Of a DNA stretch of 64,000 nt, positions 5,302 through 55,284 are shown piece by piece. Source of the DNA: Verrucomicrobiia bacterium (GTDB taxonomy: Bacteria > Verrucomicrobiota > Verrucomicrobiia > Palsa-1439); the NCBI GenBank assembly GCA_022072455.1, contig JAJVHY010000001.1, positions 76,990-140,989 on the forward strand. Direction: 5' to 3'. The notes under the pieces were generated by a model. That model was not told the DNA's origin and searched no databases. It saw nothing but the letters and a program-made list of their open reading frames with translations. Position 1 is the first letter of the stretch; each line of letters begins with the position of its first letter. Made by a program: the position numbers and the translations under genes.

Positions 5302-5373
5302 CTGTTGTGTCTCCCTCTCCTCATGACCGCACCTCAATCGGAACAGGACAATACCCCGCCCAACAACACAAGT

Positions 5374-8300
5374 CTACACCCGCATCCGCCGGAAATGACA
5401 AAATATCCCGAGCACGACAAGCCCCAGGACGACCAAAGCCAGCGCACCGGGTTCGGGGATCAGAATCACGGCGATTTGGTTCCCGTTATAGTCATAATCG
5501 ACCGTGTACCCCACCGGCAGGCCATTGGTCACACTGAACGTTCCAAACAAGTTGCCGTAACTCGCAATCACGTACGTCTCCCCCGTCACACCACCGACCG
5601 CCGTCAAATCCAGTGTGGCCCCCGCCAAAGTCAAGTCGCCCACGACGATCAGTTGATCGTTGCCGCCATCGCCGAACTCCGCTTGATACGTCCCGGTCAG
5701 CGTCAGATCGTTGCTGAACACCAACGTCCCGATGCTCAACCCCGGCGTCAGATTGCCGGCGATGGTGGTGTTGCCCACCACGCTCCCAGTCCCGCGCAAC
5801 GTGCCGGCAATCGTCTTCGCGCCCGCGCCGGTCACCACCCCGCTTCGCAGCGTCAACGTCCCGGCCACGTGCAATCCGCTCTGGAAATCCGCCGTCGCGG
5901 CCACGATCTCGGCCAGACCGTTGTTGGTGAAGTTGCCCGCGATCGCCGCGACCGTGTTGCTGGCGAGGAACTGACCACCCGCCCCAATCGTCACGCCGCC
6001 GTTCCGATATGCCGTGTGCCCGTTGACCATCTCCAACCGCGCGTAATTCGTCGCGCCCAAACCGGTATCGAATGTGTAGGACTGTCCAAACAACGTCGTG
6101 TTCGATGCCGCATTGAGCCGAAACGCATTTGCGCCGGCAAAGCTGATGTTCGAGAGTTGATTGCCACCGCCCCAGTTGGCGTAGACGTTGGCGTTGGTGA
6201 TCGCGCGGAAACTGATGACGCCATCGGTCAGCGCAATCTGGCCGGCCCCGTTGGGCGCAACGGTCGGCGCGTTGGTCGTGAACTGGAACGTGCCGGCAAG
6301 GTTGCTGATGGTGTTGCCGGTACTGCCAAAGAAATTACTCAACAAGTTGGCTTCGAGCAGACCGCCCGACACCAACAATGAGTTCCCCACCGCGCCGGCG
6401 CTGCCGACGACAACGTTGCTGCCATAATACGCGGCCCCGGCATTCACGAGAAGTTGGTTATCGGTCGCACCGTTCGCGCCAACGGTCGTCACGCGCACAT
6501 TCGTAACAACCACGCCGGAACCGAGGGTGAACAGATTGGATTGCGCCAAACCGTTGCCGACCGCGATATTACCGGCGCGGAGATTCCAGAGGACTGCGCC
6601 TTGCGCCGCGACAGCGTTGTTCGACGAACCACTGCCGACCTGCAAGCCCCCGGTCGCCAGCAACGCATTGGATGCCGTCAGCGAATTCTGGCTGCCGCCT
6701 AACGCGCCGATGGTCAACAGCGCGACGTTGGAGAACACGCTGACGGTCTCGCCGCCGATCACTTGCAAACTGTTGTTACTCGCGCTCCGCCCCGTGCCCA
6801 CCGTCACGGCACCAATGCCAATATAGGCGCCGCCGTTGGCGATCGTCAGCCGATTGCCGATGGTGTTGGTCATCCCAATGATGAATGTGCCGGTATTGGT
6901 CACCACCGAGCCGGCATCGGTCACGGTAACCGAGTTGTACCGGTTCACCGGGCCGGTACTGGTGCCGGTATTGGTGTAGCCATTACCAGCGAGGATGCCG
7001 CCGGTCTGCCACAAGCCGCCATTGGTGACGATGACTTGCATGTAGTTGTTGTTCGAGAACGCCGGGTTGCCGGATTCGCCGCCCAGGAACGCCATGCCGG
7101 TATTGATCCAGCGCGAACCGGGATCGGTCACGGTGATGGTGTTGCTGTTGACGCCGTAGAGCGGATTGGCGCCGGCCCGGCGGCCCATGTACGTATCAGT
7201 GCTGAAGACAGCGCCGCCATTTTCAATCAGTAACTTGCTTCGGGCACTGGCCCCGTTTACGCCCAAGCCGAGTTGCAGACTGCGGTCGCCGGTCACCCGC
7301 AGCACCGAATCGGTGCCGGTCACAATCGTGAACGCGCCGTCGCCCCGATCGCCGATCAGATAACCGCCATTGACGACCGAGCCGGCGAACAACACGCCGC
7401 CGTTACTGACAATCACCCCGCTGCCGCCATCAATTCCAAACTGGAAGTACCACTGCGTATTTGCAAAGTAATTCGACCAGACCGAGCCGGCCCCACTCAC
7501 GAGCGCAGTGACCGTGTTGGCAGCCGTGCTGCCCAGCATGACGGCCTTCGCGACGAGTTGACCGCTGTTGAGCACGTCGAGCCGTGCGCCGTTGCCGGTA
7601 AGATTGAGGTTGCTGGCGTTGGTGAAGACTGAACCGGGGCCGTCCACGAGAATTCTGCCATTGGCACCGACCGAAGCATTGCCGGTGGTGCTGTTAAAAA
7701 GTTTCGCGCCGTTGCTGACGACAATCGAGCCTCCCGCGCCGATGGCGAATGAACTTAAGCTGCTGGCAGTGGTCGCCACCAGGTTGGAACCGCCGAGCAT
7801 CACCCACTGGCCGCCGACGGTGAACGACCGATTCGACGCCACCAGAATCTGCGCCGCCAACGCCGTTGGCGCGTTGCTGGTGATCAACGTGCCGGCGTTG
7901 AAGTTGAAATGCGAGTTAGTGACCCCACCCGCGACGTTGTTGGTCACCAGCAGTTGATCCACTGCCAGCGTGCTGCCGGCATTCAGCGTCAACGTCCCCA
8001 ACCCGGTCGCCCCCACCACCAACCGCGCCGTGGTGGCCGCGTTGGTCACGGTTAATGCGGCCCCGCTGTCCAACTGCAACGCACCCACACCGCCGATCCA
8101 CACGTCGTCGGACGCCGTATTCACAAACGCGCCATTGCCCACCACGAGGGTGCCGTTGAGGCTCGTCACCCCGGCCTGTGTGTTCGTCAATCCATTCCGC
8201 ACCACGACCAGCCCGCCGGCAAACGCCAACTGCGCGCCGATATCGAGTGTGACCCCCTCGTTAAAGACCAGTGCCGCGCCCGGCCCGGCTCGGAACAAGC

Positions 8301-9420
8301 CCGCCCCCGAGACCGGCCCCGCCAACACCAACCGCGCCGCATTCGTCGCCAGCATCAACCCGTCGTTGACGATCCCGGTCGCCGCCACGACGAACACCCC
8401 GGTATTCGTCGCGACCACCGTCCCGTCATTCCGAAACGCGCCGGCCGTGACCTGATTGGTCCCGACCGCGCTCGTGCTCTCCCCGACCAACTGCCCGGCA
8501 TTGATCACATCTCCGGCCGTCGTCAACCAGTTCCGCAACCCGCCGCTGCTGCTCGTGTTCACCAGATAAATCGTGCCGGCGCTATTATTCGTGACCGCCG
8601 CCCCCGCGCCGCTGCCGGTCACACTCAAAATGTTCGTCACCCCCACTGCCGTCGTCGCATTGGAGATCGTGACCAGGCCGGCATTGACCAACTGGTTGGA
8701 AAAAACAGCGACGCGCGTATTGTTCGCGACGCCCCCGGCCACAAACGTGTGGATGGTCCCGGTATTGTAGAACGCATTCAAGCCACCGGCACCCGTGCCC
8801 ACCTGCACCACCAACCCGGTATCCCCCGCCGCTCCGGCATTGCTCAACAAAAACCGGATCGTCCCGGCATTGGTGACTTGCCGGCTGCTCGACCCGCTCG
8901 CCAACAGCAACCGCGCAAACCCACTCGCCGCGCCGTTGGTGATGTACGTCTCCGCCCCGTTGACGAATTCCCCCGCCACGTTCAACGTGCTCACCCCGGT
9001 GCCGCTGTTGAAACTCAGCGCCGCGTTGTCCACCATCGTCAGCGCGCCGTTCGAAAACGTGCCCACCGATCCCTGTGTGCCGATTCCAAACTGCACCACC
9101 GAATTGCTCCCCAACCAAGTCGCCCCCGTCACCCGGTACACATTGTTACTCAACAACAACGTGTGCTTCACGTTACCGGCAACACTGTTGGAAATGACGA
9201 GCGTGGCGTTCGTCGTCGTCAGCATGTTGTTGGTGATGATGATGAACGCAGAAATCGCGTTGGTGATGAACACATCATCCGCCGCCGTCGGCACCGAGCC
9301 CAATGACCAAGCCGTCGCGGTATTGCTGTAAAGCCGACTGACCGTACCCGTCCAAGAATTATTGCCAAGAACCGCCGGTGTGAACAGAACCGCCGCCACA
9401 AGTCCAAGAAGATAACGCAT
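5374..9420 (-). CDS. Giant secreted beta-helical repeat protein with a C-terminal PEP-CTERM sorting signal. Tandem paralog of 1360..5301.
   Basis: N-terminal signal peptide MRYLLGLVAAVLFTPAVLG. Same repeat architecture as the upstream paralog. The C-terminus ...IPEPGALALVVLGLVVLGIFCHFRRMRV is a PEP-CTERM. The last ~330 aa are near-identical to the paralog. Confidence 0.85.
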   Translation of the reverse strand: MRYLLGLVAAVLFTPAVLGNNSWTGTVSRLYSNTATAWSLGSVPTAADDVFITNAISAFIIITNNMLTTTNATLVISNSVAGNVKHTLLLSNNVYRVTGATWLGSNSVVQFGIGTQGSVGTFSNGALTMVDNAALSFNSGTGVSTLNVAGEFVNGAETYITNGAASGFARLLLASGSSSRQVTNAGTIRFLLSNAGAAGDTGLVVQVGTGAGGLNAFYNTGTIHTFVAGGVANNTRVAVFSNQLVNAGLVTISNATTAVGVTNILSVTGSGAGAAVTNNSAGTIYLVNTSSSGGLRNWLTTAGDVINAGQLVGESTSAVGTNQVTAGAFRNDGTVVATNTGVFVVAATGIVNDGLMLATNAARLVLAGPVSGAGLFRAGPGAALVFNEGVTLDIGAQLAFAGGLVVVRNGLTNTQAGVTSLNGTLVVGNGAFVNTASDDVWIGGVGALQLDSGAALTVTNAATTARLVVGATGLGTLTLNAGSTLAVDQLLVTNNVAGGVTNSHFNFNAGTLITSNAPTALAAQILVASNRSFTVGGQWVMLGGSNLVATTASSLSSFAIGAGGSIVVSNGAKLFNSTTGNASVGANGRILVDGPGSVFTNASNLNLTGNGARLDVLNSGQLVAKAVMLGSTAANTVTALVSGAGSVWSNYFANTQWYFQFGIDGGSGVIVSNGGVLFAGSVVNGGYLIGDRGDGAFTIVTGTDSVLRVTGDRSLQLGLGVNGASARSKLLIENGGAVFSTDTYMGRRAGANPLYGVNSNTITVTDPGSRWINTGMAFLGGESGNPAFSNNNYMQVIVTNGGLWQTGGILAGNGYTNTGTSTGPVNRYNSVTVTDAGSVVTNTGTFIIGMTNTIGNRLTIANGGAYIGIGAVTVGTGRSASNNSLQVIGGETVSVFSNVALLTIGALGGSQNSLTASNALLATGGLQVGSGSSNNAVAAQGAVLWNLRAGNIAVGNGLAQSNLFTLGSGVVVTNVRVTTVGANGATDNQLLVNAGAAYYGSNVVVGSAGAVGNSLLVSGGLLEANLLSNFFGSTGNTISNLAGTFQFTTNAPTVAPNGAGQIALTDGVISFRAITNANVYANWGGGNQLSNISFAGANAFRLNAASNTTLFGQSYTFDTGLGATNYARLEMVNGHTAYRNGGVTIGAGGQFLASNTVAAIAGNFTNNGLAEIVAATADFQSGLHVAGTLTLRSGVVTGAGAKTIAGTLRGTGSVVGNTTIAGNLTPGLSIGTLVFSNDLTLTGTYQAEFGDGGNDQLIVVGDLTLAGATLDLTAVGGVTGETYVIASYGNLFGTFSVTNGLPVGYTVDYDYNGNQIAVILIPEPGALALVVLGLVVLGIFCHFRRMRV
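5452..5970. repeat. 519-bp segment that is nucleotide-identical to 1435..1953 (copy B; 3' coding end of PEP-CTERM gene 2).
   Basis: Same comparison as copy A. The copies diverge immediately outside these coordinates (ccggttcgggg vs ccgggttcgggg on the left; gaaggtgcc vs gaactgacc on the right). Confidence 0.9.
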
Positions 9421-9762
9421 TTTACGAGAAAAAAGCCCCTTTCATATACCTCGTCTCACACAATGATAAAATATCTACGTCGCGCACCCGGGCATGTCAA
9501 GCCAAACGGGCCACGTCCGAAGATCAACCAGAACGGTTCCCCTCCAAAGTGGAACTGTGTTTCAAGTACGAACGCGAGAATAGCTTCTAAACACTGGAAG
9601 AGATTCTCGCCGATGCTTTCGGCGTAGACATTGCGGAGGATTTTCCGTGCCTCATTTCCTGAAGTGTTATTTTGGCGATGTCGCTGGTTGGGACTACCCG
9701 CCGGGGGGTTCAAAGGCCGGCTAGATTCATCGAAATCTCCGACGACATCAAAATGTGAGCGG
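9421..9762 (-). promoter_or_regulatory. Long (~340 bp), comparatively AT-richer leader/promoter region upstream of PEP-CTERM gene 2.
   Basis: Intergenic region between the rhomboid-like stop (TAA at 9763-9765, reverse strand) and the gene-2 ATG (9418-9420). No convincing ORF; the small ORF 9456..9713 (-) was rejected. Confidence 0.3.
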
Positions 9763-10469
9763 TTAAGGCGCTAAGCGCGTTGTGGTAGGCCACCGGAAAA
9801 TCAAGGCCAATCCGACTCCGGCAATCACCCCGCCGGCATGAGCGACGTTGTCAATTCGCGGTTCCAACCCGCCGATCACCAAGTCCGCCAGCACGATCAG
9901 ACCCAACACCCGCAACAAGTGCCGGCGCGCCGCAGCCAAGATCGCTCCGCGCAACCGGTACACCGTCACCCCAAACGCGCCGACCAGTCCAAATACCCCG
10001 CCACTCGCGCCACCGCCAACCGCGCCTGCATCGCCGCGCCGAGTGTGCCCCAGGATTCGACGCCCTCGTAAAACGCAATCGCCGCCGGCCACTGTTGCGT
10101 CCCGGTCAACGACCACAACCGCCACAAACGGATCTCACCACGCAACGCCCCCGGCACCTCCGCCGTGTCGGGCGGCTCCGCGGCGCCGCACCGCGCCACG
10201 CGACGCCACCGTTGCGCCGCCGGTAACCGTCCGGCTTTTGCACACCGCACCGCTTGCCGGTTGGCGAGCCGGGGCAACACGATCAGGACCAGAAACAAAC
10301 CCCACGCCCACGCCGCAGCACCGGTAAACAACGCCGCCACTGCCGCCACGAACACGACGAGATGCCGGAGAATCGGCACGACCAACCAGCGCGACGCTTC
10401 GCGCAGCAGCAGCAGTGCCGGCAACGCCGTCAGGATCACCAACGGATAGACCCAAAGCCGGTCGGTCAC
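9763..10469 (-). pseudogene. Rhomboid-family intramembrane serine protease, apparently split by a frameshift (real or a sequencing artefact).
   Basis: ORF 9763..10125 (-) carries the catalytic GxSG motif (GGGASGGVFGLVGAFG) and the His motif (NVAHAGGVIAGVGLALIF) about 51 residues apart, i.e. TM4-TM6 of a rhomboid. The overlapping ORF 9966..10469 (-) in another frame encodes hydrophobic helices of TM1-TM2 type. Their combined length (~235 aa) equals a normal rhomboid core. Only 2 bp separate its start from the upstream L,D-transpeptidase stop. Confidence 0.4.
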
Positions 10470-11205: not shown

Positions 11206-12188
11206 GGCGCGAGTTTGCGGTCGAGGGCCGGGATGGGATTGATTTGGCGTTCCGTCTCGACGGGGGGCGCGGGGACTGGGACCGGCGCGCTGGAGCCGAC
11301 CATCGGCCGGTTGGACTTGAGCCACGCCGCCGCCGCCAGGCGGATTTGGAGGACCGCGAGCGGTTGCGGTGAGACGCCATGGTTGAAATAGATCGTCGCG
11401 TCCACCCGGTAATTGTCATCACTCCAAACCAGCAGCCGGCGCTGGGCAAAGGCCGCGAGTTTTTTGGCGACGGAATCATTGCCCAACCCCAACCCACCCA
11501 AACCCGCTGTGGAGTTTTCGGGGCCGGCATCGCGTTGATCGGTGGGCGGACCAAATTGCGCCTCCAACTGCGTCTGCACGGTGGCCAGTGGAACGAGCCG
11601 TTCGCGCATCACCAAGGTGAAATCCTTGAGGACGCCATCGTAAAAATGCGCCGTGAGACGCTGGATCTCATCCGCCGGATGCGCGACGTAAATTTCCGGC
11701 TGCATCCCGCGGGTGTTCTGCAACACCAGATTGAAGCGGTGCTCCAATTCGTCACGGCGCGTCTCAAGGCGGATGCCGGCAAATTGAACCAGTTCGGTTG
11801 CCACCGCCTGATCGGGATTGAAGATCGGCGCCGCGGACTTGGAGTGGTTGTTGGTCGGCACCGGCAACGATTGGGCGTCGTCCGTCAGATAAATCGGCGT
11901 GCGTTCAAACGGTTCGCTGACCAGGTAGAACCAGAATGGCGAGAACAAGGCCAGCCCCAGAATAATCCCCGCCGTATACAGCACCGGCCGGGGAATCGGA
12001 TCGAACACCCGCTGCAAGGCGTGCCGGTGTTTCTTGTGCAATACCTCGTCCGCCTCCTCCTCCAGGCGCCGGTGCGATTGCTTGGGCAACAACATCATGA
12101 CGCCACACTTGGGACACTGCACCTCTTTCAACGGTCCCACGGACGGAACAGTCAGATGCGCCTGGCAATTTTTACAGCGAAGTTCCAT
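11202..12188 (-). CDS. Zinc-ribbon (CxxC...CxxC) membrane-anchored protein of unknown function.
   Basis: The track ORF 11202..12902 has a ~238-aa N-terminal extension that overlaps the divergent FHA gene and looks like a GC-rich artefact. The internal Met at 12186-12188 gives MELRCKNCQAHLTVPSVGPLKEVQCPKCGVMMLLP (zinc ribbon), then one TM helix (LYTAGIILGLALFSPFWFYLV) and a ~250-aa extracytoplasmic domain. Confidence 0.5.
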   Translation of the reverse strand: MELRCKNCQAHLTVPSVGPLKEVQCPKCGVMMLLPKQSHRRLEEEADEVLHKKHRHALQRVFDPIPRPVLYTAGIILGLALFSPFWFYLVSEPFERTPIYLTDDAQSLPVPTNNHSKSAAPIFNPDQAVATELVQFAGIRLETRRDELEHRFNLVLQNTRGMQPEIYVAHPADEIQRLTAHFYDGVLKDFTLVMRERLVPLATVQTQLEAQFGPPTDQRDAGPENSTAGLGGLGLGNDSVAKKLAAFAQRRLLVWSDDNYRVDATIYFNHGVSPQPLAVLQIRLAAAAWLKSNRPMVGSSAPVPVPAPPVETERQINPIPALDRKLAP

Positions 12189-12263
12189 CGGGCCGCCAGT
12201 GTACCGACCCGCCGGCAAAAATCCACGTGAAATCTTCGCCAATGTGCTACACTCCGCCCCGGC
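12189..12263. promoter_or_regulatory. Divergent promoter region between the zinc-ribbon operon (-) and the FHA/kinase operon (+).
   Basis: 75-bp non-coding gap between divergent start codons. No motif was scored; this is positional inference only. Confidence 0.3.
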
Positions 12264-13154
12264 ATGTATCGGCTGACTTTTCAGTCCCGCGACGCAACCC
12301 GCGCCCCGTTCACCGGCGACGCGGCCCCCGTCACCATTGGCCGCGCGGCCGGCTGCACCCTCCAACTCACCGCGGCCGGCCTCCACGACCACCACGCGAC
12401 CCTCGACCGCCGGGCCGACGGCTATTACCTCCGCGACCTTGTTGGCAGTCGCACCGTCCGCGTCAACGATCAGGCGATCAACGACCACCGGCTCAGCAGC
12501 GGTGACGAGATCGAGATCGGCGCTGTCCGCATGCACTTTCACATCATCCACGACACCCCCGGCAGCCGCCGCGCGTTCGACATCTGGCAAGCCGTGGCCG
12601 GCGCTGCCGTGCTCCTCCTGGTGCTCGGTCAAATCGGGTTCTTGGGCTGGATCTTCGCGCAACCGCATCCGCGCAACATGAAACTCGACATCGTCAAAGG
12701 CAAACAAGCCAAAGCCCTGAACGCCGCCCCGGTCGTCCCGCCGCCCACTGAGCCGGTCCCGCTTGCACCACTCGTCCCGCTCACCCCCGCTCCCGCCGTT
12801 GCCGCCCCACCGCCTGTCTTGAACCGGCAACTCAAAATCACCCGCGTTGACCGCGTGGAAGGCCGCGCCGACGTCACGTGGCGCATCCAAATCAAAGCCC
12901 AAGTCCGCGACCGGCAGCTCGATTCATCCGCCGTCCAGATCATCGTCCACTGCTACTCCGCGGGAAACCAGTTGATCGCCACACAGGAAGCGCCGCGCCC
13001 AGCCGCGTGGGAAAATTTCTCCAGCAAACAAATCCCGGTCCGCGTCAACCTCGCCCCAGCCCGCTGCGCCGGCTGCGTGGTGCGCACGTACTACCGGCAA
13101 CAATTACAGGACATCTGGGCGTCGGCGCCAGCACTGGCGACACCCGCCCCGTAA
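12264..13154 (+). CDS. FHA-domain protein with a central TM segment and a Pro/Ala-rich linker.
   Basis: N-terminal FHA signature (VTIGRAAGCTLQL...HATLDRRADGYYLRDLVGSRTVRVNDQAI...LSSGDEIEIGAVRMHF), then a TM helix (AVAGAAVLLLVLGQIGFLGWIF) and a PPPTEPVPLAPLVP linker. Confidence 0.75.
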   Translation: MYRLTFQSRDATRAPFTGDAAPVTIGRAAGCTLQLTAAGLHDHHATLDRRADGYYLRDLVGSRTVRVNDQAINDHRLSSGDEIEIGAVRMHFHIIHDTPGSRRAFDIWQAVAGAAVLLLVLGQIGFLGWIFAQPHPRNMKLDIVKGKQAKALNAAPVVPPPTEPVPLAPLVPLTPAPAVAAPPPVLNRQLKITRVDRVEGRADVTWRIQIKAQVRDRQLDSSAVQIIVHCYSAGNQLIATQEAPRPAAWENFSSKQIPVRVNLAPARCAGCVVRTYYRQQLQDIWASAPALATPAP

Positions 13155-16553: not shown

Positions 16554-16642
16554 GCGCCCGCTCTTCTACGCCGGCCATTTCCTGAACGCAAGCAAACGAA
16601 ACACTCGCCATCCCGCGCGGGCTGTGCTACAAATTGCCGCAC

Positions 16643-19600
16643 ATGAAAGTGGATCCCCGTTTCCTCAAGGAGGAAGGCGCCGAGGTTTTCACCGGCAACG
16701 AATTGTTGATCAAAGGCGCTCTCGAAGTCGAGGGGGGGACGCATTTGCTCACCGGTTATCCCGGCTCGCCCGTGGCTGGCTTTTTCGACTCGATGGAATC
16801 CATCGCCGCCCTGCTCAAAGGCAAGGGCATCCGCGCTTGCATCGCCAACAACGAGGCTCTCGGCGCGGCCATGCTGAACGGCTCGCAAATGGGACCGCTG
16901 CGCGGCATTTGCGCGATGAAATCCGTCGGGCTCCACGTCGCGGCGGATGCGTTGGCGCTCGGCACGCTGGCCGGCGCGCATCCCGACGGCGGCGCGCTGG
17001 TAATTGTCGGCGACGATCCGTGGAGTGATTCCACCCAGGTTCCGGCCGATTCCCGGTATTTGTGTAAGCATATCTTCATGCCGGTCATGGAACCGGCCAC
17101 CAACCAGGAACTCAAAGACTGGATTGATCTCGGCTTCAAACTTTCGCGGGAAGCCAATGTCTTCATCGGCTACCTCGTCACCACCAATCAGGCTGACGGC
17201 GGCGGCAGTGTGTCGTGCCGGCGCAATCATTTTCCGGAACTCAACGCGATCAACAAGTTCAGCATTGATACCGCCGCGATTGATTTCGAACGCACCGTCC
17301 TCCTGCCGCCGCGCACTTGGCTGCGCGAACAAGGGATGCCGGAACGATTCAATCGCCTTTTCGCCAGCGCCCGCCGGCATGGCGTCAATCGCATAATCAA
17401 CGCCCGCGAAAATCCTCGCTGGCGCGCCGAGATCGGGTTCGTCGCCACCGGGCTGGGCTTCTCGTACCTCCAACACGCGCTCCACGAACTCGGCGTAGCC
17501 GACCAGGTACCCATTCTCAAACTCGGCATCAGTTATCCAATTGACCCGCAACTTGTCGAAGAATTTACCCAGCAAGTCCGCAGCATCTTCGTCGTCGAAG
17601 AACGCCGCGGGTTCATGGAAGAGCAGATCAGCGAGATCGTCAGCAAGCTGAACCAAAACGCCACGAGCGCCAATCGCACGAACGTCTGGGGCAAAGAATT
17701 CCCCGCCGGCCTCGCCGGCATCCCGGCGACGCGCGGGTTCAATCCGAGCATCCTGATTGAACGCCTCGCACCCCTCGGCAAGTTTTTCCACGACCCGAAT
17801 CTCAGTCTGAACGAAGCTCGCATCGAATGCGCCGTCGAACTCGTCCAGAAGACCGGGACGTTCGACATCCAGATTCCACCCCGCACGCCGACGTTCTGTC
17901 CCGGCTGTCCGCATCGTGACAGCGCGAGCGTGTTGATCGAGATGAAGAAGCAGTTCCGCGACGAGAAGTACATGCGGCGGGAACACAAGCGCGGGCCGGT
18001 CGATGTCGTGTTCCATGGCGATACCGGCTGCTACACGATGTTGATGTTCGAGCCGACCAAAGATCTGATGCACAATTATTCCGGCATGGGTCTCGGTGGC
18101 GGCACCGGGGCCGGCATCGATCCGTTCATCACGAACAAACAGGTCGTGTTTCTCGGGGACTCCACTTTCTTCCACTCCGGCATGCTCGGCATCTCGAATG
18201 CCTTGAAGCAAGGCCAGGACATCACCTACATCATCCTCGACAACGCCACGACCGCCATGACCGGCCATCAGCCCACCCCGTCGATGGACGTGGATATCGT
18301 CGGCGAGCCGACCTACAAGCAGGGCATTGACGGCATCGTCGAAGCGATGCTTGGGCAGGGCGTCCATGTCGTCCGCGCCAATCCCGCCTACCGGGAAACG
18401 TGGCGCGGGCTGCTCGAAGAAACCATTCTGCGTGACGGCGTGAAAGTAATCGTCGCCGACAAGGAATGTGGCATCACCTATCACCGGCGCGAGACCCGGC
18501 AGGAACGTCAGGAGATTCGCGAGAGCGGTTTCCTTCACGAGAAACGCTACGTCAACGTCAACCCGGACGTCTGTGAACACTGCCTCGAATGCACGCTGGC
18601 GACCGGTTGCCCTGGCCTCACGTTTGTCGAGACGCCGTTCGGCGCGAAAGTGCAGACCGACCTGTCGTGGTGCGTGGCCGACACAGCCTGCACGAAGATT
18701 TACGCCTGCCCGTCCTTCGAGGAAATCACCATCGTCCGCACTCAGAAACCACCCGCGCCGATTGACTCGATTGACCTCAACAACTTGCCAGTGCCTCAAC
18801 CCCGGCAATTCGATGACGTGTGGCACTGTCATCTCGCCGGCGTCGGCGGCCAAGGCATCGGCGTCTGCACGGCGACGATTGTGCGCGCGGGTTTCAAGCA
18901 GGGCTACAACGTTTTATTCTGCGACAAGAAGGGGCTGGCGATTCGGAACGGCGGGGTTTTCTCGCAAGTCACCTTCACGAAGAACGGCAGCCATGCCTCC
19001 GTGCTGATCCCGTACGGCCAAGCCGATCTTGTCATCGGTGTGGACCCGCTCGAAGCCTGCCGGAGCCTCGACCCGAAGGGCAACCTCCGCGTCGGCTCAC
19101 CGGAACGCACCAGCGCAGTCGTCAATTCATTCAAGACCCCGACGATCCTCACGCTCCTTGGTAAAGATAATTTCAACGTCGCCGAAGTCGAAGCGACGAT
19201 CCAGAAGTACACCCGCCCCGACGACTACTTCGGCCTCAACGTCGCTGGCATCAGCGAGCATTTCTTCGGCACGAAGCTCTACGCCAACGTCGTCATGCTC
19301 GGCATCGCGTTCCAACGCGGCCTGCTCCCGATCTCGCTCGATAACATCGAGTGGGGCTTGCGCGAAACCATGGGCAGCGCTGCCGCCGACAATCTCAAGG
19401 CGTTGTCGCTTGGCCGCAAACTCGTCCTCGAACCCGACCTCGCCCACAAACACGAGTTGCACGAGACATACGAAGAATTCGTCAGCGAACGCATGGACGT
19501 CCTCAAGCGCAACCACCGCTGGGGCCGCCGCTGGGCGCTCGATTTCGCCCAACTCGTCCGCCGCAGCGAGCAGAACATCAAGCTCGGCGACCAAACCGCC

Positions 19601-20299
19601 CGCGACCTCGTCTGGCGTTTGTACGACTTGGTTGAATTCGGCACCGGCGACTTCGCGAAGCAATACCTCGACCTTGTTGAAAAAGTGTATGCACAGGATT
19701 CAGCCGACCGGGATTACGCCGCGACCAAGGCCGTCATCTGGAATTTGCACAAGGCGATGATCATCAAAGACGAGGTCTACGTCGCCCACCTCTTAACGAG
19801 CGAAGAAAAGACCCGCCGCGACAACCACCGCTACCACGTCGATGCCAAGCGCGGCGACAAAATCATCTACCACCACATCAACCGGCCCGAATTCAACATC
19901 CTCGGCCGCGATATCCGGTTCAAGATGAGCCCGGAGAAGTGGCAGTTTAATCTACTGAAACACATGCGCTGGCTCCGGAAGTGGATGCCCGCCTGGCACC
20001 GCCGCGAACGCGAATTCCGCGACTGGTACATCGGCTTGGTGGAAAACTTCGTGCAATCAGCGATCAGCCATCAGCCGTCAGCCAACGCCGAAGCCGAACG
20101 AAGTGAGACACGGTCCTCCGCAACCCGAGAGCAGACAGCCGAAAGCTATAGCCGCTGGACAGCGGCGCTCCGCTGCGTCGAGCCGGTCAAAGGCTACCGC
20201 GAAGTCCGGTATCCGAAGATGGAAGAAGCGAAGCGGAAGGTGGAGACGTTGTTGAATTCAAACACTCCGGCCACGACAAAACAGTCCGTGCTTGTCTAG
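16643..20299 (+). CDS. Indolepyruvate:ferredoxin oxidoreductase family protein (fused alpha/beta 2-oxoacid:ferredoxin oxidoreductase).
   Basis: ~1218 aa. The IOR N-terminus reads MKVDPRFLKEEGAEVFTGNELLIKGALEVEGG...TGYPGSP (the track ORF starts at TTG 16634; ATG 16643 is preferred). It has a TPP-binding region, a ferredoxin-like Cys cluster (CEHCLECTLATGCPG) and a C-terminal beta-like domain. The long antisense ORF 16511..18853 is judged an artefact. Confidence 0.85.
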   Translation: MKVDPRFLKEEGAEVFTGNELLIKGALEVEGGTHLLTGYPGSPVAGFFDSMESIAALLKGKGIRACIANNEALGAAMLNGSQMGPLRGICAMKSVGLHVAADALALGTLAGAHPDGGALVIVGDDPWSDSTQVPADSRYLCKHIFMPVMEPATNQELKDWIDLGFKLSREANVFIGYLVTTNQADGGGSVSCRRNHFPELNAINKFSIDTAAIDFERTVLLPPRTWLREQGMPERFNRLFASARRHGVNRIINARENPRWRAEIGFVATGLGFSYLQHALHELGVADQVPILKLGISYPIDPQLVEEFTQQVRSIFVVEERRGFMEEQISEIVSKLNQNATSANRTNVWGKEFPAGLAGIPATRGFNPSILIERLAPLGKFFHDPNLSLNEARIECAVELVQKTGTFDIQIPPRTPTFCPGCPHRDSASVLIEMKKQFRDEKYMRREHKRGPVDVVFHGDTGCYTMLMFEPTKDLMHNYSGMGLGGGTGAGIDPFITNKQVVFLGDSTFFHSGMLGISNALKQGQDITYIILDNATTAMTGHQPTPSMDVDIVGEPTYKQGIDGIVEAMLGQGVHVVRANPAYRETWRGLLEETILRDGVKVIVADKECGITYHRRETRQERQEIRESGFLHEKRYVNVNPDVCEHCLECTLATGCPGLTFVETPFGAKVQTDLSWCVADTACTKIYACPSFEEITIVRTQKPPAPIDSIDLNNLPVPQPRQFDDVWHCHLAGVGGQGIGVCTATIVRAGFKQGYNVLFCDKKGLAIRNGGVFSQVTFTKNGSHASVLIPYGQADLVIGVDPLEACRSLDPKGNLRVGSPERTSAVVNSFKTPTILTLLGKDNFNVAEVEATIQKYTRPDDYFGLNVAGISEHFFGTKLYANVVMLGIAFQRGLLPISLDNIEWGLRETMGSAAADNLKALSLGRKLVLEPDLAHKHELHETYEEFVSERMDVLKRNHRWGRRWALDFAQLVRRSEQNIKLGDQTARDLVWRLYDLVEFGTGDFAKQYLDLVEKVYAQDSADRDYAATKAVIWNLHKAMIIKDEVYVAHLLTSEEKTRRDNHRYHVDAKRGDKIIYHHINRPEFNILGRDIRFKMSPEKWQFNLLKHMRWLRKWMPAWHRREREFRDWYIGLVENFVQSAISHQPSANAEAERSETRSSATREQTAESYSRWTAALRCVEPVKGYREVRYPKMEEAKRKVETLLNSNTPATTKQSVLV

Positions 20300-20386
20300 C
20301 GTCTGGTAGCCGGGTTGCTATCACGGTCGTGGCAACGACTATTGTCAACCGCAGGAAGGTTTCTAACCTCGAAATAAAGCAACCCG

Positions 20387-21142
20387 ATGGACAGGCAAAA
20401 GACAATCGAAGTCGAGTATCACAAGCGACCCGAATACAAAGCCCGGTTAAATTCAGCGAGTTGCATACTCAACATTGGAAAAGAATTACAGAGTCAGTCC
20501 ATGCAGTTTGCGCATCGGACAACGAGAGTTCTTTTCTACTTGAACATGGTTCTACGTGTATGTCCGAGGACTATCCACGAGAATGTTCGTAATTACGTCA
20601 TTCGCAAAATCCAAATTCAACAACGGAAGGCTCTCTTCGGTGGGTACGGATATCTGTTTCAAGCATCGGCTGTCTTCTCCGCCTTTGCTCTAAATGGATT
20701 TCTTGATTATTGCGCCACAAATCCAACTGGAAACATGCCTGAGACTCAAAATAAGCCCAACGGAGAATTTATGCCGTACCGTCAGAAACTGGAGGTGCTC
20801 TACAGACACTACTGCATAGATATCGAACCCGACTGGAACAAGGAGCCATTTATCTGGTTCGACGACTGTTTATCCCGCAAGAAGAACGACACTGTAATGC
20901 GAGACAGAATTGCCCACCCATTGCCAAGTCATGCACCAAACCATTTAAAGAAGACATTTACGGTTGCCCAAGAGGTGGATGTCGCAATGTTTCTGACGGG
21001 CAAATCAAAGTTCGACTGGGAGTATGACGCCGAAAAGGCGAGCAAACTCTATGAAGCGGTAAGTGAATTCATTCAGCAGGTTAACTCTGGCGCCGCTTTA
21101 CCCTTTCTGCCTGAGGGTTTCACCGCATCTGCGAAATCTTGA
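20387..21142 (+). CDS. Hypothetical protein encoded in an AT-richer islet. No recognisable family.
   Basis: 251-aa ORF. Its codon usage and composition (many A/T-ending codons, Lys/Asn/Ile/Phe-rich) contrast with the flanking genes. I recognised no motifs. The start is uncertain (Met1 or the internal MQFAHRTTR). Confidence 0.45.
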   Translation: MDRQKTIEVEYHKRPEYKARLNSASCILNIGKELQSQSMQFAHRTTRVLFYLNMVLRVCPRTIHENVRNYVIRKIQIQQRKALFGGYGYLFQASAVFSAFALNGFLDYCATNPTGNMPETQNKPNGEFMPYRQKLEVLYRHYCIDIEPDWNKEPFIWFDDCLSRKKNDTVMRDRIAHPLPSHAPNHLKKTFTVAQEVDVAMFLTGKSKFDWEYDAEKASKLYEAVSEFIQQVNSGAALPFLPEGFTASAKS

Positions 21143-21272
21143 TTCAGATGTAACTCTGGTGAAGGTGCGACGTCGGCATTTTCATTTTAGTAAATCACAT
21201 CAGCCTAAGCGCAGCGACTCAGTCTGAACACACTCGTTGCCCCGTTGCCAACGCGCGGCGCACCTGTTTTAA

Positions 21273-21782
21273 CTCCGCTCCCTGCAGGCGACCATCCTTC
21301 ACACCGACGGCGAGTGTTCGGGCAATCCCGGTCCCGGCGGGTGGGCCGTCATCGTCCGCGTGGGCGCTCACGTCCAGGAACTTTTAGGGAGTGAACCGGC
21401 CACCACCAATAACCGGATGGAATTGCGCACGGCGATTGAAGGGTTGCGCGCGTTGGGCCAATTGCACGCAGTCGAAGTGTTCACCGATTCGGTGTACCTC
21501 AAGGACGGCATCACCAAATGGAAGCGCAACGGTTGGCGCACCGCGGCGAAAGAGCCGGTCAAGAACACGGATCTCTGGCGCGAATTGGACGAAGTCACCG
21601 GGCCGCATCACATCCAGTGGCGTTGGCTCAAAAGCCACGCCGGTCATCGCGATAACTGGCGTTGTGACCAACTCGCCCGCGAACAGATTGCCCGTCTCCG
21701 GCAGCCGTTCCCGACGCCCCCTGCCAAACTAGCCTCACCGGCAAAGCCCGCCGTGCCGGTCCAATGTGAGTTATCGTTCTAG
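21273..21782 (+). CDS. rnhA: Ribonuclease HI.
   Basis: In-frame translation ...LQATILHTDGECSGNPGPGGWAVIVRVGAHVQELLGSEPATTNNRMELRTAIEGL...FTDSVYLKDGITKWKRNGWRTAAKEPVKNTDLWRELD...HIQWRWLKSHAGHRDNWRCDQLAR matches RNase HI catalytic blocks (TDGxC, NNRMEL, DS, HxG..N..D). The frame is open only from the TAA at 21270-21272, with no ATG upstream of the catalytic Asp. The start is probably CTG 21282 or another non-canonical codon. The track ORF (GTG 21360) would lack the catalytic N-terminus. Confidence 0.75.
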   Translation, partial: LRSLQATILHTDGECSGNPGPGGWAVIVRVGAHVQELLGSEPATTNNRMELRTAIEGLRALGQLHAVEVFTDSVYLKDGITKWKRNGWRTAAKEPVKNTDLWRELDEVTGPHHIQWRWLKSHAGHRDNWRCDQLAREQIARLRQPFPTPPAKLASPAKPAVPVQCELSF

Positions 21783-21902
21783 CACTCCTTGGAGGGCTAC
21801 GCTCCCTCGTGACCGCAACCCCCGAACGGACTCGACGGAGCGCGTCGTTCCACCAACCTCGCCGCACTTGCCTCATCGCGCAGCATCACCTAATCTCGCC
21901 CC

Positions 21903-22172
21903 ATGCCTGAGTACCTGTTGACGAAGGACGCCGTGACGCCGTTCGAAGATCTGACGGCCGGTGCCGATCCCGAAAAAGTCGTCGCGTGGAAGCGTAGTAG
22001 CAAACTCGACGCGGCCAGGTGCGGCTACGATTGGATCGTGGTGCGCTCGGAGTCAACGAACGACGCCCGGCGGAAAGTCGAATTGCCGCTAGAAGCCGCC
22101 CGGCTGGAATTGAGCCGGGTATTCACAATACCGGCATTCGCCGCCTGGGTTCGCGCCGCCGCGATTGTATAA
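21903..22172 (+). CDS. Small hypothetical protein (89 aa).
   Basis: ORF with local codon bias, directly upstream of the nucleoside hydrolase (17-bp gap). No motifs recognised. Confidence 0.3.
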   Translation: MPEYLLTKDAVTPFEDLTAGADPEKVVAWKRSSKLDAARCGYDWIVVRSESTNDARRKVELPLEAARLELSRVFTIPAFAAWVRAAAIV

Positions 22173-22189
22173 TAACGAATGTATTGCTG

Positions 22190-23155
22190 ATGAAGACCAA
22201 CCAATTGCCACAGCTTACCGATGCGCGTCGCTTGGCCCGGCTGGAGCCGCCCACCGGCAAGGTGCGCATGGTTCTCGACACCGACACGTACAACGAGATC
22301 GACGACCAGTTTGCGTTGGTGTACGCGCTGCTCTCACCGGAGCGCGTGCAGTGCGAGGCGGTCTATGCGGCGCCGTTTCATAATGACCGGTCGAGTGGCC
22401 CCGCCGATGGCATGGAGAAGAGCTACGCAGAGATCGGTCGCGTGCTGGAACGGTTGGGCAAGACACCGGCCGGCTTCGCCTTCAAAGGCGCGACCCACTG
22501 GCTGGGATCTGTGGACAAGCCGGTTCGCAGTCCGGCCGTTGACAATCTGATCGCCCGCGCCAAGGCCGCCGGTGACGAGCCGTTGTACGTGGTTGCGATC
22601 GCGGCCATCACGAATGTCGTCTCCGCGATCCTGCTCGCGCCGGAGATCATGGAGAAGATTGTGGTCGTCTGGCTCGGCGGTCAGCCGCAACACTGGCCCC
22701 GCGCCACCGAGTTCAACCTCGAACAGGATGTCTTGGCGGCGCGGGTGCTCTTCGATTGCGGGGTGCCGCTCGTGCATGTGCCGTGTCTGTCGGTGGCCGA
22801 ACAATTGCGCACGACGCAGGCCGAGTTGGCGCGCTTCATGAAGGGCCACAATACGATTGGCGATTACCTGTATCAGATTTATTCGGATTACTTCCCCGAT
22901 CACTTCGCGCGCTCAAAGGTCATCTGGGATCTCAGCGCGGTGGCGTGGTTGATCAATCCGGCCTGGCTGCCGAGTGCGTTGGTGTTCAGCCCGCTGCTGC
23001 GACGCGACTGGCGCGATTTACCGCACACCCCCGGGATGCGCCGCGAACATACGTGGAGTCACGACTCCGCGCGACACCTCATCCGGGAAATCCGCGCCGT
23101 GCAGCGCGACGCCATTTTTGGCGATCTCTTCCGCAAGATTGCGCAACACCCATGA
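22190..23155 (+). CDS. Inosine-uridine-preferring nucleoside hydrolase family protein.
   Basis: Internal Met at 22190 (MKTNQLPQL...). N-terminal Asp cluster LDTDTYNEIDDQFALVYAL (DxDxxxDD fingerprint), ~321 aa. The track ORF 22019 start adds an Arg-rich extension that looks spurious. Confidence 0.75.
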   Translation: MKTNQLPQLTDARRLARLEPPTGKVRMVLDTDTYNEIDDQFALVYALLSPERVQCEAVYAAPFHNDRSSGPADGMEKSYAEIGRVLERLGKTPAGFAFKGATHWLGSVDKPVRSPAVDNLIARAKAAGDEPLYVVAIAAITNVVSAILLAPEIMEKIVVVWLGGQPQHWPRATEFNLEQDVLAARVLFDCGVPLVHVPCLSVAEQLRTTQAELARFMKGHNTIGDYLYQIYSDYFPDHFARSKVIWDLSAVAWLINPAWLPSALVFSPLLRRDWRDLPHTPGMRREHTWSHDSARHLIREIRAVQRDAIFGDLFRKIAQHP

Positions 23156-26239: not shown

Positions 26240-27220
26240 ATGAGCCAAAAAACGACCGTCGCTTGCCTGCGCGAAGTCGGCATCCCGGAACAAGTGGTGC
26301 GGATCGAGGAATGGGAATTACCGGCACTCCAACCGGGCCAGATTCTCGTCGAGCCACTCATCTCCCCTATCAACCCGGCTGATTTGAATATTTTGACCGG
26401 CACTTACGGCAGCAAGCCCACCTTGCCGGTCGTACTCGGCAATGAAGGCGTCGGCGTGGTGACGGCGGGCAGCTTGCCGGCAGGGCAGCGGGTCCTCGCG
26501 CCGATGCAACTCGGCTGGTGGTGTACCGCCCGGATTCTGAACGCGGCGGAGGTCTTCCCCATTCCGGCCGAGATCCCGGCCGAAGTCGCCGCGATGCTCG
26601 CGGTCAATCCGCCGACGGCTTACCGGATGTTGATGGATTTCGTCGAACTCAAGCCCGGCGATTGGCTCATCCAAAATGCCGCAAACTCCGGCGTGGGCCG
26701 GTGCGTGATCGCGATCGCCAAGGCCAAAGGGTTTCACACCATCAACGTCGTCCGCCGCAAGGAACTCATCCCGGAGTTGGAAGCATTGGGCGCCGACCTC
26801 GTGCTCACCGACGAAACGCCCGTCGCGAAGCAAATCACGGGGAAAGAAATCAAACTCGCCCTGAACGCCGTCGGCGGCGAGAGCGCCCGGCAAATTGCGA
26901 AAACGCTCGCGCCCCACGGCACGCACGTGACTTATGGCGCGATGGGCCGCGAGCCCTTGCGCCTCGACAACGGCCTCTTGATCTTCCGTGATATCCGGTT
27001 CCGCGGCTTTTGGGTCAGCGACTGGTACCGGCACGCGACGCGCGCGGACATCATCGCGATGTTCACCGAACTCCGGCCACTGATTCACGCCGGCAAGTTC
27101 AATGTCCCGATTGAACAAACGTATCCGCTGGTCAAAATCCGCGAAGCCCTCGCACATGCCGCCCGCGCCGAGCGCACCGGTAAAATTCTTCTTTCGATGA
27201 AAGCCGCGGCACCGGCTTGA
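26240..27220 (+). CDS. MDR-superfamily NAD(P)H-dependent enoyl reductase/quinone oxidoreductase (trans-2-enoyl-CoA reductase-like).
   Basis: ISPINPADLNILTGTYGSKPTLPVVLGNEGVGVV resembles the MECR/ETR substrate-domain motif. The Rossmann segment is IQNAANSGVGRCVIAIAKAKGFHTINVVRR. Confidence 0.65.
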   Translation: MSQKTTVACLREVGIPEQVVRIEEWELPALQPGQILVEPLISPINPADLNILTGTYGSKPTLPVVLGNEGVGVVTAGSLPAGQRVLAPMQLGWWCTARILNAAEVFPIPAEIPAEVAAMLAVNPPTAYRMLMDFVELKPGDWLIQNAANSGVGRCVIAIAKAKGFHTINVVRRKELIPELEALGADLVLTDETPVAKQITGKEIKLALNAVGGESARQIAKTLAPHGTHVTYGAMGREPLRLDNGLLIFRDIRFRGFWVSDWYRHATRADIIAMFTELRPLIHAGKFNVPIEQTYPLVKIREALAHAARAERTGKILLSMKAAAPA

Positions 27221-54229: not shown

Positions 54230-55283
54230 CGCCGTTAGAGGACACGTTCAAAACTCCCTTGCCATCGGTCCAGAACAGACCACCGGGCGTGCCGTTGGGC
54301 CCGGTTCTATGCATATCCTTGCTGTACTGCAGTAACGTCGTTTTGGTGACGCGATCAACGTGGCCATCCACAAAGAGCACGTTCATGCCCAGATTGTGCC
54401 AAGCCGCGACAAAGGCATTGCAGTCGTTTCGCAACCAAATTCGTGGGTCAGGGTTGACGCCGGTCCAAGCGATGTTCCACGCATTCGTCACCTGCAAAGG
54501 AGTCAGTCCGGTGGCTCCTCCATAGGGAAGCGTGTACCCCCACGCGCCGCCGTTCGCCTGCCCCCATGGGTTCGCCAAGCCAAATGACGAACCATCGAGG
54601 GGAATTTCGCCGAGCAGCATTGCCGAGCTGCCGTAATTGAGGTCGCTCATGTTGACACGCCGCGACCAATTCTGGGGACTGGTGGGACCCGCACCACAAC
54701 TACTGGCGCCGCCGCAGCGCCAGGTCAGCGGGAAAAGATCGAGGTTCATCTGATAGTTGCTCGCCGAGAGCCGGTAACCGCCGCCAGGATAGCGCCAGGC
54801 GTTCGCCGGGCATTGGAGCAGCTTCGAGTAGGATGCATAGGTCGAGGTGACGCTCGAAGGACAACACCCGCCAATGCCACACGTATTGCATGCAATCCGC
54901 TTTTGCAGCACGCTCAACGGGCAACCCAAATACGGTGCAATCACGTAGTTCCAGCCGCCGGCGTTCTTGGTTGGGTCGGAGCTGGTGACGCAATACGCCG
55001 TGCCTTGATAGGTGGGACAGTACGATTCGCCGTTAGCGCCGGGCGCGTTGGTGCAAGCGCATTCGGGGTTAGCATAGGGATAGGCGCCATTATTGTCGTT
55101 CAAGTATCCCGAGAAACCCACGCCGAGTTGGCGTTCGTTATTGGCGCACTGTGCGTCTTTGCTGCGCGCCTTGGCTGTGGCGAGCGCCGGCATGAGCAGG
55201 GCCGCCAAAACGGCGATAAGAGTGACCACCACCAACAGTTCCACAAGCGTAAAGCCCCTTTGGAACAACGGTCGCTTTTTCAT
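54177..55283 (-). CDS. Prepilin-type N-terminal cleavage/methylation-domain protein with DUF1559 (H-X9-DG) C-terminal region.
   Basis: Internal Met at 55283: MKKRPLFQRGFTLVELLVVVTLIAVLAALLMPALA (class III signal with the G-F-T-L-V-E motif). Cys-rich middle. C-terminal NVLFVDGHVDRV. Confidence 0.8.
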   Translation of the reverse strand: MKKRPLFQRGFTLVELLVVVTLIAVLAALLMPALATAKARSKDAQCANNERQLGVGFSGYLNDNNGAYPYANPECACTNAPGANGESYCPTYQGTAYCVTSSDPTKNAGGWNYVIAPYLGCPLSVLQKRIACNTCGIGGCCPSSVTSTYASYSKLLQCPANAWRYPGGGYRLSASNYQMNLDLFPLTWRCGGASSCGAGPTSPQNWSRRVNMSDLNYGSSAMLLGEIPLDGSSFGLANPWGQANGGAWGYTLPYGGATGLTPLQVTNAWNIAWTGVNPDPRIWLRNDCNAFVAAWHNLGMNVLFVDGHVDRVTKTTLLQYSKDMHRTGPNGTPGGLFWTDGKGVLNVSSNGGETQWYDNQYPGASYPN

Positions 55284-55284
55284 G

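Follow-up and report, generated by a model that had tools for sequence, protein, structure and literature searches.

Does a GC-poor orphan gene that stands beside a gene without an ATG start codon mark the place of a recent insertion? This question is raised by a locus on contig JAJVHY010000001.1 of a Verrucomicrobiia bacterium (assembly GCA_022072455.1, positions 76,990 to 140,989), a stretch of 64,000 nucleotides that is referred to here as the window and whose own coordinates are used throughout. At 20300-21272 the window contains a GC-poor islet with an orphan open reading frame (ORF) of 251 amino acids (aa), called ORF251. The islet lies between the gene of a fused indolepyruvate:ferredoxin oxidoreductase (IOR) and rnhA, the gene of RNase HI. 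A sequence-only reading of the locus had proposed that the islet was acquired horizontally and that its integration may have clipped or replaced the rnhA start. This insertion-scar interpretation is largely wrong. The account that we hold with moderate confidence is that ORF251 is an old accessory gene in a gene-turnover slot between IOR and a conserved downstream gene, P205, and that rnhA is a separate gene whose start has mutated and which is losing its function.

The compositional part of the proposal is sound. The islet has a GC content of 47.4% compared to 60.6% for the whole window, and it is the minimum of the window at z = -5.6 (standard deviation 2.4%, taken from stretches of the same length as the islet). 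The runner-up stretches at 54971-55943 (0.545) and 8951-9923 (0.553) were far milder. Likewise, the tetranucleotide distance was maximal at 20301-21200 with a z of 5.6, and the runner-up reached 2.8. Thus, the sliding-window checks of both GC and tetranucleotides bear out the AT-richer islet that had been described. The GC profile climbs again from ~21200, and the right end of the islet consists of an AT-rich, unconserved spacer on the 3' side of ORF251 (21143-21221, + strand). A separate Logan assembly, L051, was 100% identical to the window over 19210-21952 (2743 bp); because of this identity, neither the junctions of the islet nor the unusual rnhA start described below is peculiar to one assembler.

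The islet deviates in GC, tetranucleotides, and codon usage as a classical genomic island does, and its gene is absent from the same site in many relatives. However, the hallmarks of such an island are missing: there was no integrase or transposase within 20300-23151, no tRNA or tmRNA site, and no flanking direct repeat. No tRNA was found in the 64 kb, no Rfam family was found, and direct and inverted repeats of 12-22 nt occurred at chance level only. The latter include a 20-nt inverted pair at 20328/21225 that is 75% complementary and whose right arm lies inside a conserved 5' flank of rnhA. That integrase, tRNA, and clear repeats are lacking had been noticed before, and the searches agree. 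Terminator and promoter scans of the region gave counts at shuffle level, and the predicted RNA structure of 21143-21320 was not significant (fold z = 0.03).

ORF251 (20387-21142, + strand) encodes a basic protein of 29 kDa with an isoelectric point of 9.0, and its GC content is 46%. Its atypical codon usage, which was part of the initial description, is evident from a synonymous-codon mean log-probability of -1.38 vs -0.91 to -1.18 for 12 neighbouring reference genes, and from a GC content at third codon positions (GC3) of 0.52 vs 0.72-0.78 in neighbour genes. Recoding ORF251 with host-typical codons gave 53.6% GC instead of the actual 46.2%. About half of the GC deficit is therefore due to amino-acid composition and about half to codon choice.

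ORF251 is a real protein-coding gene that is kept under purifying selection, because its pairwise ratio of nonsynonymous to synonymous divergence (dN/dS) is 0.12-0.21 and because it is conserved over its full length. A search of 5.8 billion protein clusters returned two homologues only, P0001 (70% identity) and P0002 (59%), and the alignments ran over the full length including the N-terminus. A HMMER scan of 1.84 billion representatives, which used a three-sequence profile and no word index, returned only P0002 and a fragment, P0123. The contig of this fragment is L051, the Logan assembly identical to the window, and ORF251 is called there merely as a 123-aa C-terminal fragment. In other words, the family consists of three distinct members in the protein sets searched, which amount to about 15 billion proteins. 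ORF251 resembles ORFan genes in that it is short, has odd codon usage and GC, lacks homologues beyond a narrow clade, and yields no confident structure. It differs from them in that it is under clear purifying selection and is conserved at full length across lineages whose synonymous sites are saturated. These two properties argue that ORF251 is neither spurious nor very young.

How old is ORF251 at this site? The other carriers, L001/L002 and L003, are related Verrucomicrobiae in which the homologue lies just 3' of IOR in the same orientation. In L001/L002, a 185-aa gene separates the IOR C-terminus from the ORF251 homologue, which is followed by SseB, an oppositely oriented Peptidase_MA_2 gene, a HODM-like gene (haem-dependent N-demethylase alpha-subunit-like, PF11927), and P205. 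In L003 the IOR tail is followed after 89 bp by the ORF251 homologue and then by uracil-DNA glycosylase (UDG). The 87-bp spacer between IOR and ORF251 in the window (20300-20386, + strand) resembles this 89-bp counterpart weakly, and downstream of the ORF251 stop there is no homology to L001 or L003. The GC3 of ORF251 is 0.46-0.52 in the three carriers compared to 0.74-0.78 in the flanks. Between the window and L001, dN was 0.26 for ORF251, 0.22 for P205, and 0.24 for the IOR C-terminus. Because ORF251 has diverged as much as its flanks, and occurs at the same site with the same low GC in other lineages, it is not a recent insertion. The sequence-only reading had named relatives with the same ORF in the same place and with similar composition as evidence against itself, and L001/L002 and L003 are such relatives.

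Part of the horizontal-acquisition proposal stands. The composition is foreign, and comparison with relatives at this site, as had been suggested, shows that ORF251 is missing in the closest ones, L135 (IOR 92% identical at the amino-acid level), L004, and L132, as well as in ~30 further species. What does not stand is that the acquisition was recent or private to this genome. Judged by its distribution and divergence, ORF251 is probably old, lineage-restricted accessory cargo.

The site itself is variable. We compared 41 IOR-anchored loci from species-representative genomes. Upstream of IOR, synteny was well conserved; downstream, gene content differed in almost every species. IOR (16634-20299, + strand, 1221 aa) is the conserved left anchor and is 70-92% identical to its relatives at the amino-acid level. 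P205 (23152-23778, + strand) is the conserved right anchor, and it follows IOR directly in L004, L010, L021, and L023, with spacers of 29-185 bp. Relative to this direct adjacency, the slot of the window holds 2.86 kb of cargo, namely ORF251, rnhA, ORF89 (21903-22172, + strand), and a nucleoside hydrolase gene (IU_nuc_hydro; 22190-23155, + strand). Only ORF251 is compositionally odd among these four genes. Neither ORF251 nor rnhA was encoded within 10 kb in any of the 41 loci. Other contents following IOR include an S1/P1 nuclease in L005, PQQ beta-propeller (PQQ_2) genes in L008, CbiM in L027, and, in L049, which is a sister of L008, a leucine-rich repeat (LRR) gene on the opposite strand, rnhA, and then a PQQ_2 gene. 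In L132, IOR is followed after 17 bp by an rnhA with an ATG. L007 carries a 546-aa tetratricopeptide-repeat (TPR) gene (11479-13119) with a GC3 of 0.54 vs 0.77 for its IOR, followed by P205; low-GC cargo is thus recurrent in this slot.

These comparisons establish the IOR 3' flank as a gene-turnover slot between the conserved anchors IOR and P205. The rnhA gene is itself variable cargo of the same slot, and the islet therefore did not interrupt a junction at which IOR and rnhA were stably joined. Comparative genomics knows such sites, where accessory 'islets' separate core genes that are otherwise conserved, as chromosomal gene-turnover hotspots. The IOR-P205 slot is like such a hotspot in that its anchors are adjacent in some species and otherwise parted by varied, often GC-poor cargo, in that the cargo is patchily distributed, and in that one transposase is present. 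It differs in that the cargo consists of one to five ordinary-looking genes with no integrase, tRNA, att repeats, or phage genes, and in that one putative breakpoint falls within the 3' end of IOR, which is itself an anchor.

The transposase is found in L135, the closest relative that was found (IOR 92% aa identical with a dS of 0.65; P205 92%). Its slot lacks ORF251, rnhA, and nucleoside hydrolase, and holds a RAYT-like, REP-associated Y1 transposase of the IS200 type (5210-5836, PF01797, E = 1.7e-6), an ORF89 homologue, and P205, after which comes an oppositely oriented 841-aa gene. Ahead of the transposase, the spacer at 5170-5209 contains a GC-rich palindrome, GGGGCAGCC...GGCTGCCCC. A long inverted repeat, CCGGTGTAGCC...GGCTACACCGG, is present in L004 as well, within the 185-bp spacer between IOR and P205 (1979-2163). 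The turnover of genes at this site may be driven by REP-like elements.

The breakpoint in IOR is suggested by a mosaic 3' end. At 20149-20190 the IOR gene of the window is 98% identical to that of L135. At 20248-20299, which covers the last ~17 codons (...KQSVLV*; + strand), it is 56% identical to L135 vs 79% to the ORF251 carrier L003, so that the tail follows the ORF251 haplotype. Because the tail switches similarity from L135 to L003, a left recombination breakpoint would lie near 20248. The segments are short, and gain in the window and replacement in L135 would be indistinguishable from them. A side observation concerns the preceding part of the gene. The C-terminal region of IOR contains a low-complexity insertion, VQSAISHQPSANAEAERSETRSSATREQTAESYSRW, at 20055-20160 in the window. 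It is missing in L132, L004, L005, and L001, and the L135 version is 10 residues shorter. The insertion is a derived marker that links the window with L135.

What, then, happened to the start of rnhA? The RNase HI frame opens after a TAA at 21270-21272, and it contains no ATG, GTG, or TTG before the codon of the catalytic Asp (21306-21308). In this respect the initial description was accurate. It had also counted four codons between the TAA and the catalytic block; a CTG at 21282-21284 (+ strand) is indeed the fourth codon after the TAA, whereas the Asp comes 11 codons after it. In protein and codon alignments this CTG occupies the position at which 17 of 17 close homologues have ATG. The N-termini of these homologues read MQ(A/T)x-I-(I/L)-HTDGGC (n = 17) vs L-QATILHTDGEC in the window. 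The first canonical start in the frame is a GTG at 21360. The public annotation, P0005 ('MAG: Ribonuclease H [Verrucomicrobiae bacterium]', where MAG stands for metagenome-assembled genome), begins even further inside the gene, at an internal ATG at 21417 (21417-21782). The resulting 121-aa product is without the first catalytic Asp and could not be active.

The sequence in front of the CTG is rnhA's own. Alignments with L045, L048, and L049 identify a conserved 5' flank of ~60 bp at 21222-21281 (+ strand). Its core at 21243-21275 is CGTTGCCAACGCGCGGCGCACCTGTTTTAAC, which includes the TAA at 21270-21272, and the part at 21243-21268 is CGTTGCCAACGCGCGGCGCACCTGTT. The rnhA neighbours in these three loci are genes for adenine glycosylase, nucleoside phosphorylase, and an LRR protein. 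Because the flank is conserved where the rnhA contexts are unrelated, the window has retained the 5' flank that belongs to rnhA. A locus scan for rnhA in metagenomes found only relatives of at most 62% identity, which were of no use for flank comparison. Taken together, the alignments indicate that the islet ends at ~21221 and that rnhA was not clipped; the only change of its start is a point mutation of ATG to CTG. The proposal that integration removed or replaced the start fails, because ~60 bp of flank is kept, the N-terminus is collinear, and a single change accounts for the codon.

A short element within the flank reads TGTTTTAAC in the window vs TGTTATGAAC or TGTTAAGAA in relatives. It may be a TG-extended -10 box, in which case the window would have lost the A at its second position. 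A complete promoter was considered for the conserved TTGCCA-N17-TATGAA and rejected, because the last base is not T and the motif fails the -10 rule of the scanner; we refer to it as a conserved 5' element. A 9-bp palindrome, GTTGcCAAC, is also present in this element in the window (21244-21252), L048, and L049, and L045 has ATTGCCAAC in its place. The palindrome could be an operator instead of, or besides, a -35 box. No Shine-Dalgarno sequence was found before the rnhA start in the window or in relatives. The sole candidate for an in-frame upstream start or coupling ORF was an 11-codon ORF with a TTG start that ends at the TAA, and it was judged meaningless.

The rnhA gene (21282-21782, + strand) has 166 codons that are open to a normal stop, with no frameshift or premature stop. 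It matches PF00075 at 132.3 bits against a cutoff of 25.8 (E = 1.9e-38, profile positions 3-140 of 141) and NF001236, the E. coli RnhA type, at 185.6 bits against a cutoff of 160 (profile positions 5-144 of 151). All catalytic residues are aligned: the D of HTDG, the E of NNRME, the D of FTDS, the H of HAGH, and the D of RCD. The gene thus resembles RNase HI in its full-length profile match, its DEDD and His residues, its N-terminus, and its length. It differs in its CTG initiator, in four missing residues of the WLxxW segment, and in three further substitutions at near-invariant positions.

Several lesions belong to the window lineage, all on the + strand. A G to E change (GGG to GAG, 21312-21314) lies beside the catalytic Asp. 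Between AAATGG repeats, 12 bp have been deleted (junction 21515/21516), which removed the four residues from the WLxxW segment (KWLxxWKRNGW), including a Trp that is kept in 118 of 119 homologues. The remaining substitutions are G to S (21633-21635), P to R (21648-21650), and E to W (GAG to TGG, 21657-21659). The window deviates at 4 of the 49 columns that are at least 95% conserved, and 117 of 119 homologues deviate at none or one. In comparison with its closest relative, the rnhA of L132 (80% aa identity, dS 0.30), the omega (dN/dS) of 0.33 was the maximum of all pairs. Furthermore, Tajima-type relative-rate counts had the window branch as the faster one in 24 of 24 comparisons (for example, 15 vs 6). 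It seems rather probable from these changes that rnhA is a weakly translated gene in early decay. With early-stage pseudogenes it shares the loss of the canonical start, an altered element upstream of it, a slippage deletion that stays in frame, and an excess of substitutions at conserved positions. Unlike them, it has kept its frame and its catalytic residues, and the increase of dN/dS on its branch falls short of significance.

The strongest alternative, which we consider unlikely and still take seriously, is that rnhA is fully functional. It would be translated from the rare CTG start, perhaps after read-through from IOR and ORF251, and the substitutions would be neutral or adaptive. Several observations speak for this possibility or against decay. 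The 166-codon frame is intact, the five catalytic residues D, E, D, H, and D are present, and the NF001236 score exceeds its cutoff. The nonsynonymous to synonymous counts were 20/14 on the window branch vs 12/14 on the L132 branch, a difference that is not significant (Fisher p = 0.43), and 20/14 corresponds to an omega of about 0.5, which is below 1. Single relative-rate tests were marginal (chi-square about 3.9), the conserved 5' element fails the promoter consensus scan as noted above, and CTG is annotated as a start in some bacteria. However, CUG initiates at 1-2% of the AUG level in E. coli (bioRxiv 10.1101/063800), and non-AUG starts are especially poor without a leader or a Shine-Dalgarno sequence (PMC8459731). 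A functional gene would also have to be reconciled with the ATG in all 17 close homologues, and with four changes at columns of at least 95% conservation, including the lost Trp and the double change of GAG to TGG, that make the window an outlier among 119 homologues.

What is the function of ORF251? Searches of Pfam, NCBIfam, PHROGs, and PADLOC gave no match, and comparison with Pfam and all PDB sequences gave nothing even at E <= 10. The sole line obtained, to the murein transglycosylase MltF at 13.7 bits, was dismissed as meaningless. There was likewise no match in JGI metagenome contigs, IMG/VR, phage records, or plasmid records, and no transmembrane segment by hydropathy (maximum 1.23). 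The description of a single 251-aa protein without recognisable motifs is therefore upheld by the domain, structure, phage, plasmid, and defence libraries. The structure prediction that had been proposed as a check was run twice with AlphaFold2. The full-length model had a pLDDT (predicted local distance difference test) of 43 and the model of the conserved C-terminal 171 residues a pLDDT of 39, so the check was made and yielded no usable fold. Because both models are too poor, no fold comparison is justified. A metal site was also considered and rejected, because the invariance of Cys and His did not exceed the 46% background of invariant positions.

One possibility is a functional tie between ORF251 and IOR, in which ORF251 would serve as an accessory subunit, a maturation factor, or a regulator; this tie, and not a shared history, would then explain its constant position after IOR. 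In all three carriers it lies on the same strand, 90-600 bp from the IOR stop, with no terminator called between the two genes in the window, and the sequence of the IOR tail changes together with the presence or absence of ORF251. We nevertheless consider this tie improbable, because ~30 related species have IOR without ORF251, including the closest relative at 92% identity, because unrelated genes occupy the same position elsewhere, and because the codon usage of ORF251 is unlike that of IOR. We give a similarly low probability to a bolder form of the idea, in which ORF251 represents a new family that is coupled both physically and functionally to IOR and moves with the last ~17 IOR codons as a 3' module that can be swapped, while selection maintains the low GC and the rare codons (for example, for throttled expression), or in which it is alternatively a new toxin or defence effector.

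A toxin or defence cargo had also been suggested by the sequence-only reading. Its concrete form, for example a HEPN-like RNase expressed at a low level in an accessory slot, is quite doubtful. An R172-DRIA-H177 motif (Rx4H) is invariant in 3 of 3 ORF251 sequences and fits the loose Rx4-6H pattern of HEPN domains, the N-terminal half of the protein is predicted to be helical, and a patchy distribution with low GC is common for defence cargo. However, the pattern is short and would probably be expected by chance in 251 aa, and 46% of the columns are invariant anyway. In contrast to HEPN-domain RNases, ORF251 has no Pfam, PADLOC, or PDB match at E <= 1-10, and PHROGs gave none at permissive thresholds. 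There is no conserved antitoxin or immunity neighbour, as the downstream gene differs in all three carriers, and both structure models are unusable. Thus, no library and no phage or plasmid test supports a toxin or defence function.

The idea from which the question started, namely that ~950 bp of DNA from a distant AT-rich donor recently inserted between IOR and rnhA and removed the rnhA start, is very improbable in the light of these results. It draws on the strongly atypical composition, on the lack of ORF251 in L135 and L004, and on L132, which has the closest rnhA and whose gene order is IOR, 17 bp, and rnhA with ATG, with no islet. However, L132 lacks the rnhA flank that is common to the window, L045, L048, and L049, and this is why its junction would be the derived state. 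In L132, IOR ends with GTG TTG GTT TAA GAAC, and the TAA lies inside a stretch, GTTTAAGAAC, that resembles the rnhA flank. By comparison, the IOR stop is TAG in the window, L003, L005, L004, and L135. The L132 junction would then be a deletion derivative in which the last IOR codon was fused to the rnhA flank. Further arguments against the insertion are that the start codon is collinear with that of relatives and differs from it by one base only (A to C), that ORF251 in L001 and L003 has the same place, the same GC, and a flank-like divergence, and that the searches for an integrase, a tRNA, repeats, and relatives on phages or plasmids were negative. Single-base consensus errors do occur, and the source of this contig is a MAG. 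It is nevertheless hardly credible that the CTG start and the deletion arose as artefacts of sequencing or of the consensus, because the independent Logan assembly is identical over 2743 bp covering every lesion and because errors would hardly be expected to produce five separate non-synonymous lesions and a 12-bp deletion without once disrupting the frame.

The account of an old accessory gene beside a separately mutated rnhA can be set out as follows. ORF251 probably came from an AT-rich source and would have entered the slot before the split of the three carrier lineages. Its composition would have been only partly ameliorated since then; alternatively, its low GC would be selected. Since its entry it would have been held by purifying selection where it is present, and lost or swapped out in most relatives. 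It has no mobility machinery of its own, and its patchy distribution would reflect loss or replacement via homologous recombination with the IOR 3' end as one anchor. ORF251 is probably co-transcribed with IOR by read-through, as no + strand terminator was called in the 87-bp spacer. The rnhA gene is separate cargo with its own 5' flank intact, whose initiator mutated from ATG to CTG. Together with a changed -10-like element, the 12-bp slippage deletion, and the radical substitutions, this would most likely have produced a poorly translated copy that is losing function.

Four points should be held against the ORF251 part of this account. The absence of ORF251 from L135, L132, and L004 fits a gain in the window lineage equally well, and three carriers cannot polarise the direction of change. 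Since dS is saturated, the word 'old' rests on dN alone. The L003 locus spans only the last ~100 nt of IOR, of which the first 36 nt align poorly. Finally, a low GC that lasts at such divergence would require either a very AT-rich donor or selection.

The remaining genes of the slot show some features of their own. ORF89 is a near-orphan small gene with one homologue among 5.8 billion proteins (63% identity), which lies between IOR and P205 in L135. It has no Pfam match and evolves fast (dN 0.24, dS 0.51). The nucleoside hydrolase stop overlaps the P205 start (ATGA, 23152-23155), which suggests translational coupling of the two genes, although L135 and L004 have P205 without the hydrolase. The Poribacteria loci L031, L033, L034, L036, and L038-L040 also carry hydrolase homologues (52-58% identity), in these cases 7-10 kb upstream of IOR and in the opposite orientation. 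P205 has no Pfam domain, and its L135 homologue shows a faint NlpC/P60 match (E = 0.016). In L133 (6001-7645) and L134 (747-2391), an rnhA with 68% identity is immediately followed by a zinc alcohol dehydrogenase (ADH) gene, whose product is 85% identical at the amino-acid level to that of the window gene at 26240-27220 (+ strand). In the window this order is rearranged, and a block of ORF89, nucleoside hydrolase, P205, and the oppositely oriented 841-aa gene stands between rnhA and ADH; in L135 the ADH is missing from that place.

The lesson of this locus is mostly corrective and methodological. A GC-poor orphan gene beside an ATG-less gene mimics an insertion scar, whereas comparison traces the two features to events that are unrelated: the orphan is old accessory cargo of a slot prone to recombination, and the rnhA start codon has undergone a point mutation. 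A small turnover slot 3' of IOR is thereby documented in uncultured Verrucomicrobiae, and the relatives that were compared fill it in at least 8 different ways. In the public annotation, the 121-aa 'Ribonuclease H' is a truncated call of a gene that starts at a CTG and may be decaying. No second RNase H was found within the 64-kb window, and if this rnhA is the organism's only RNase HI gene, its state would be physiologically relevant. Taken as a whole, this is an ordinary kind of genome dynamics, and it brings to notice one uncharacterised protein family with three known members and no annotation.

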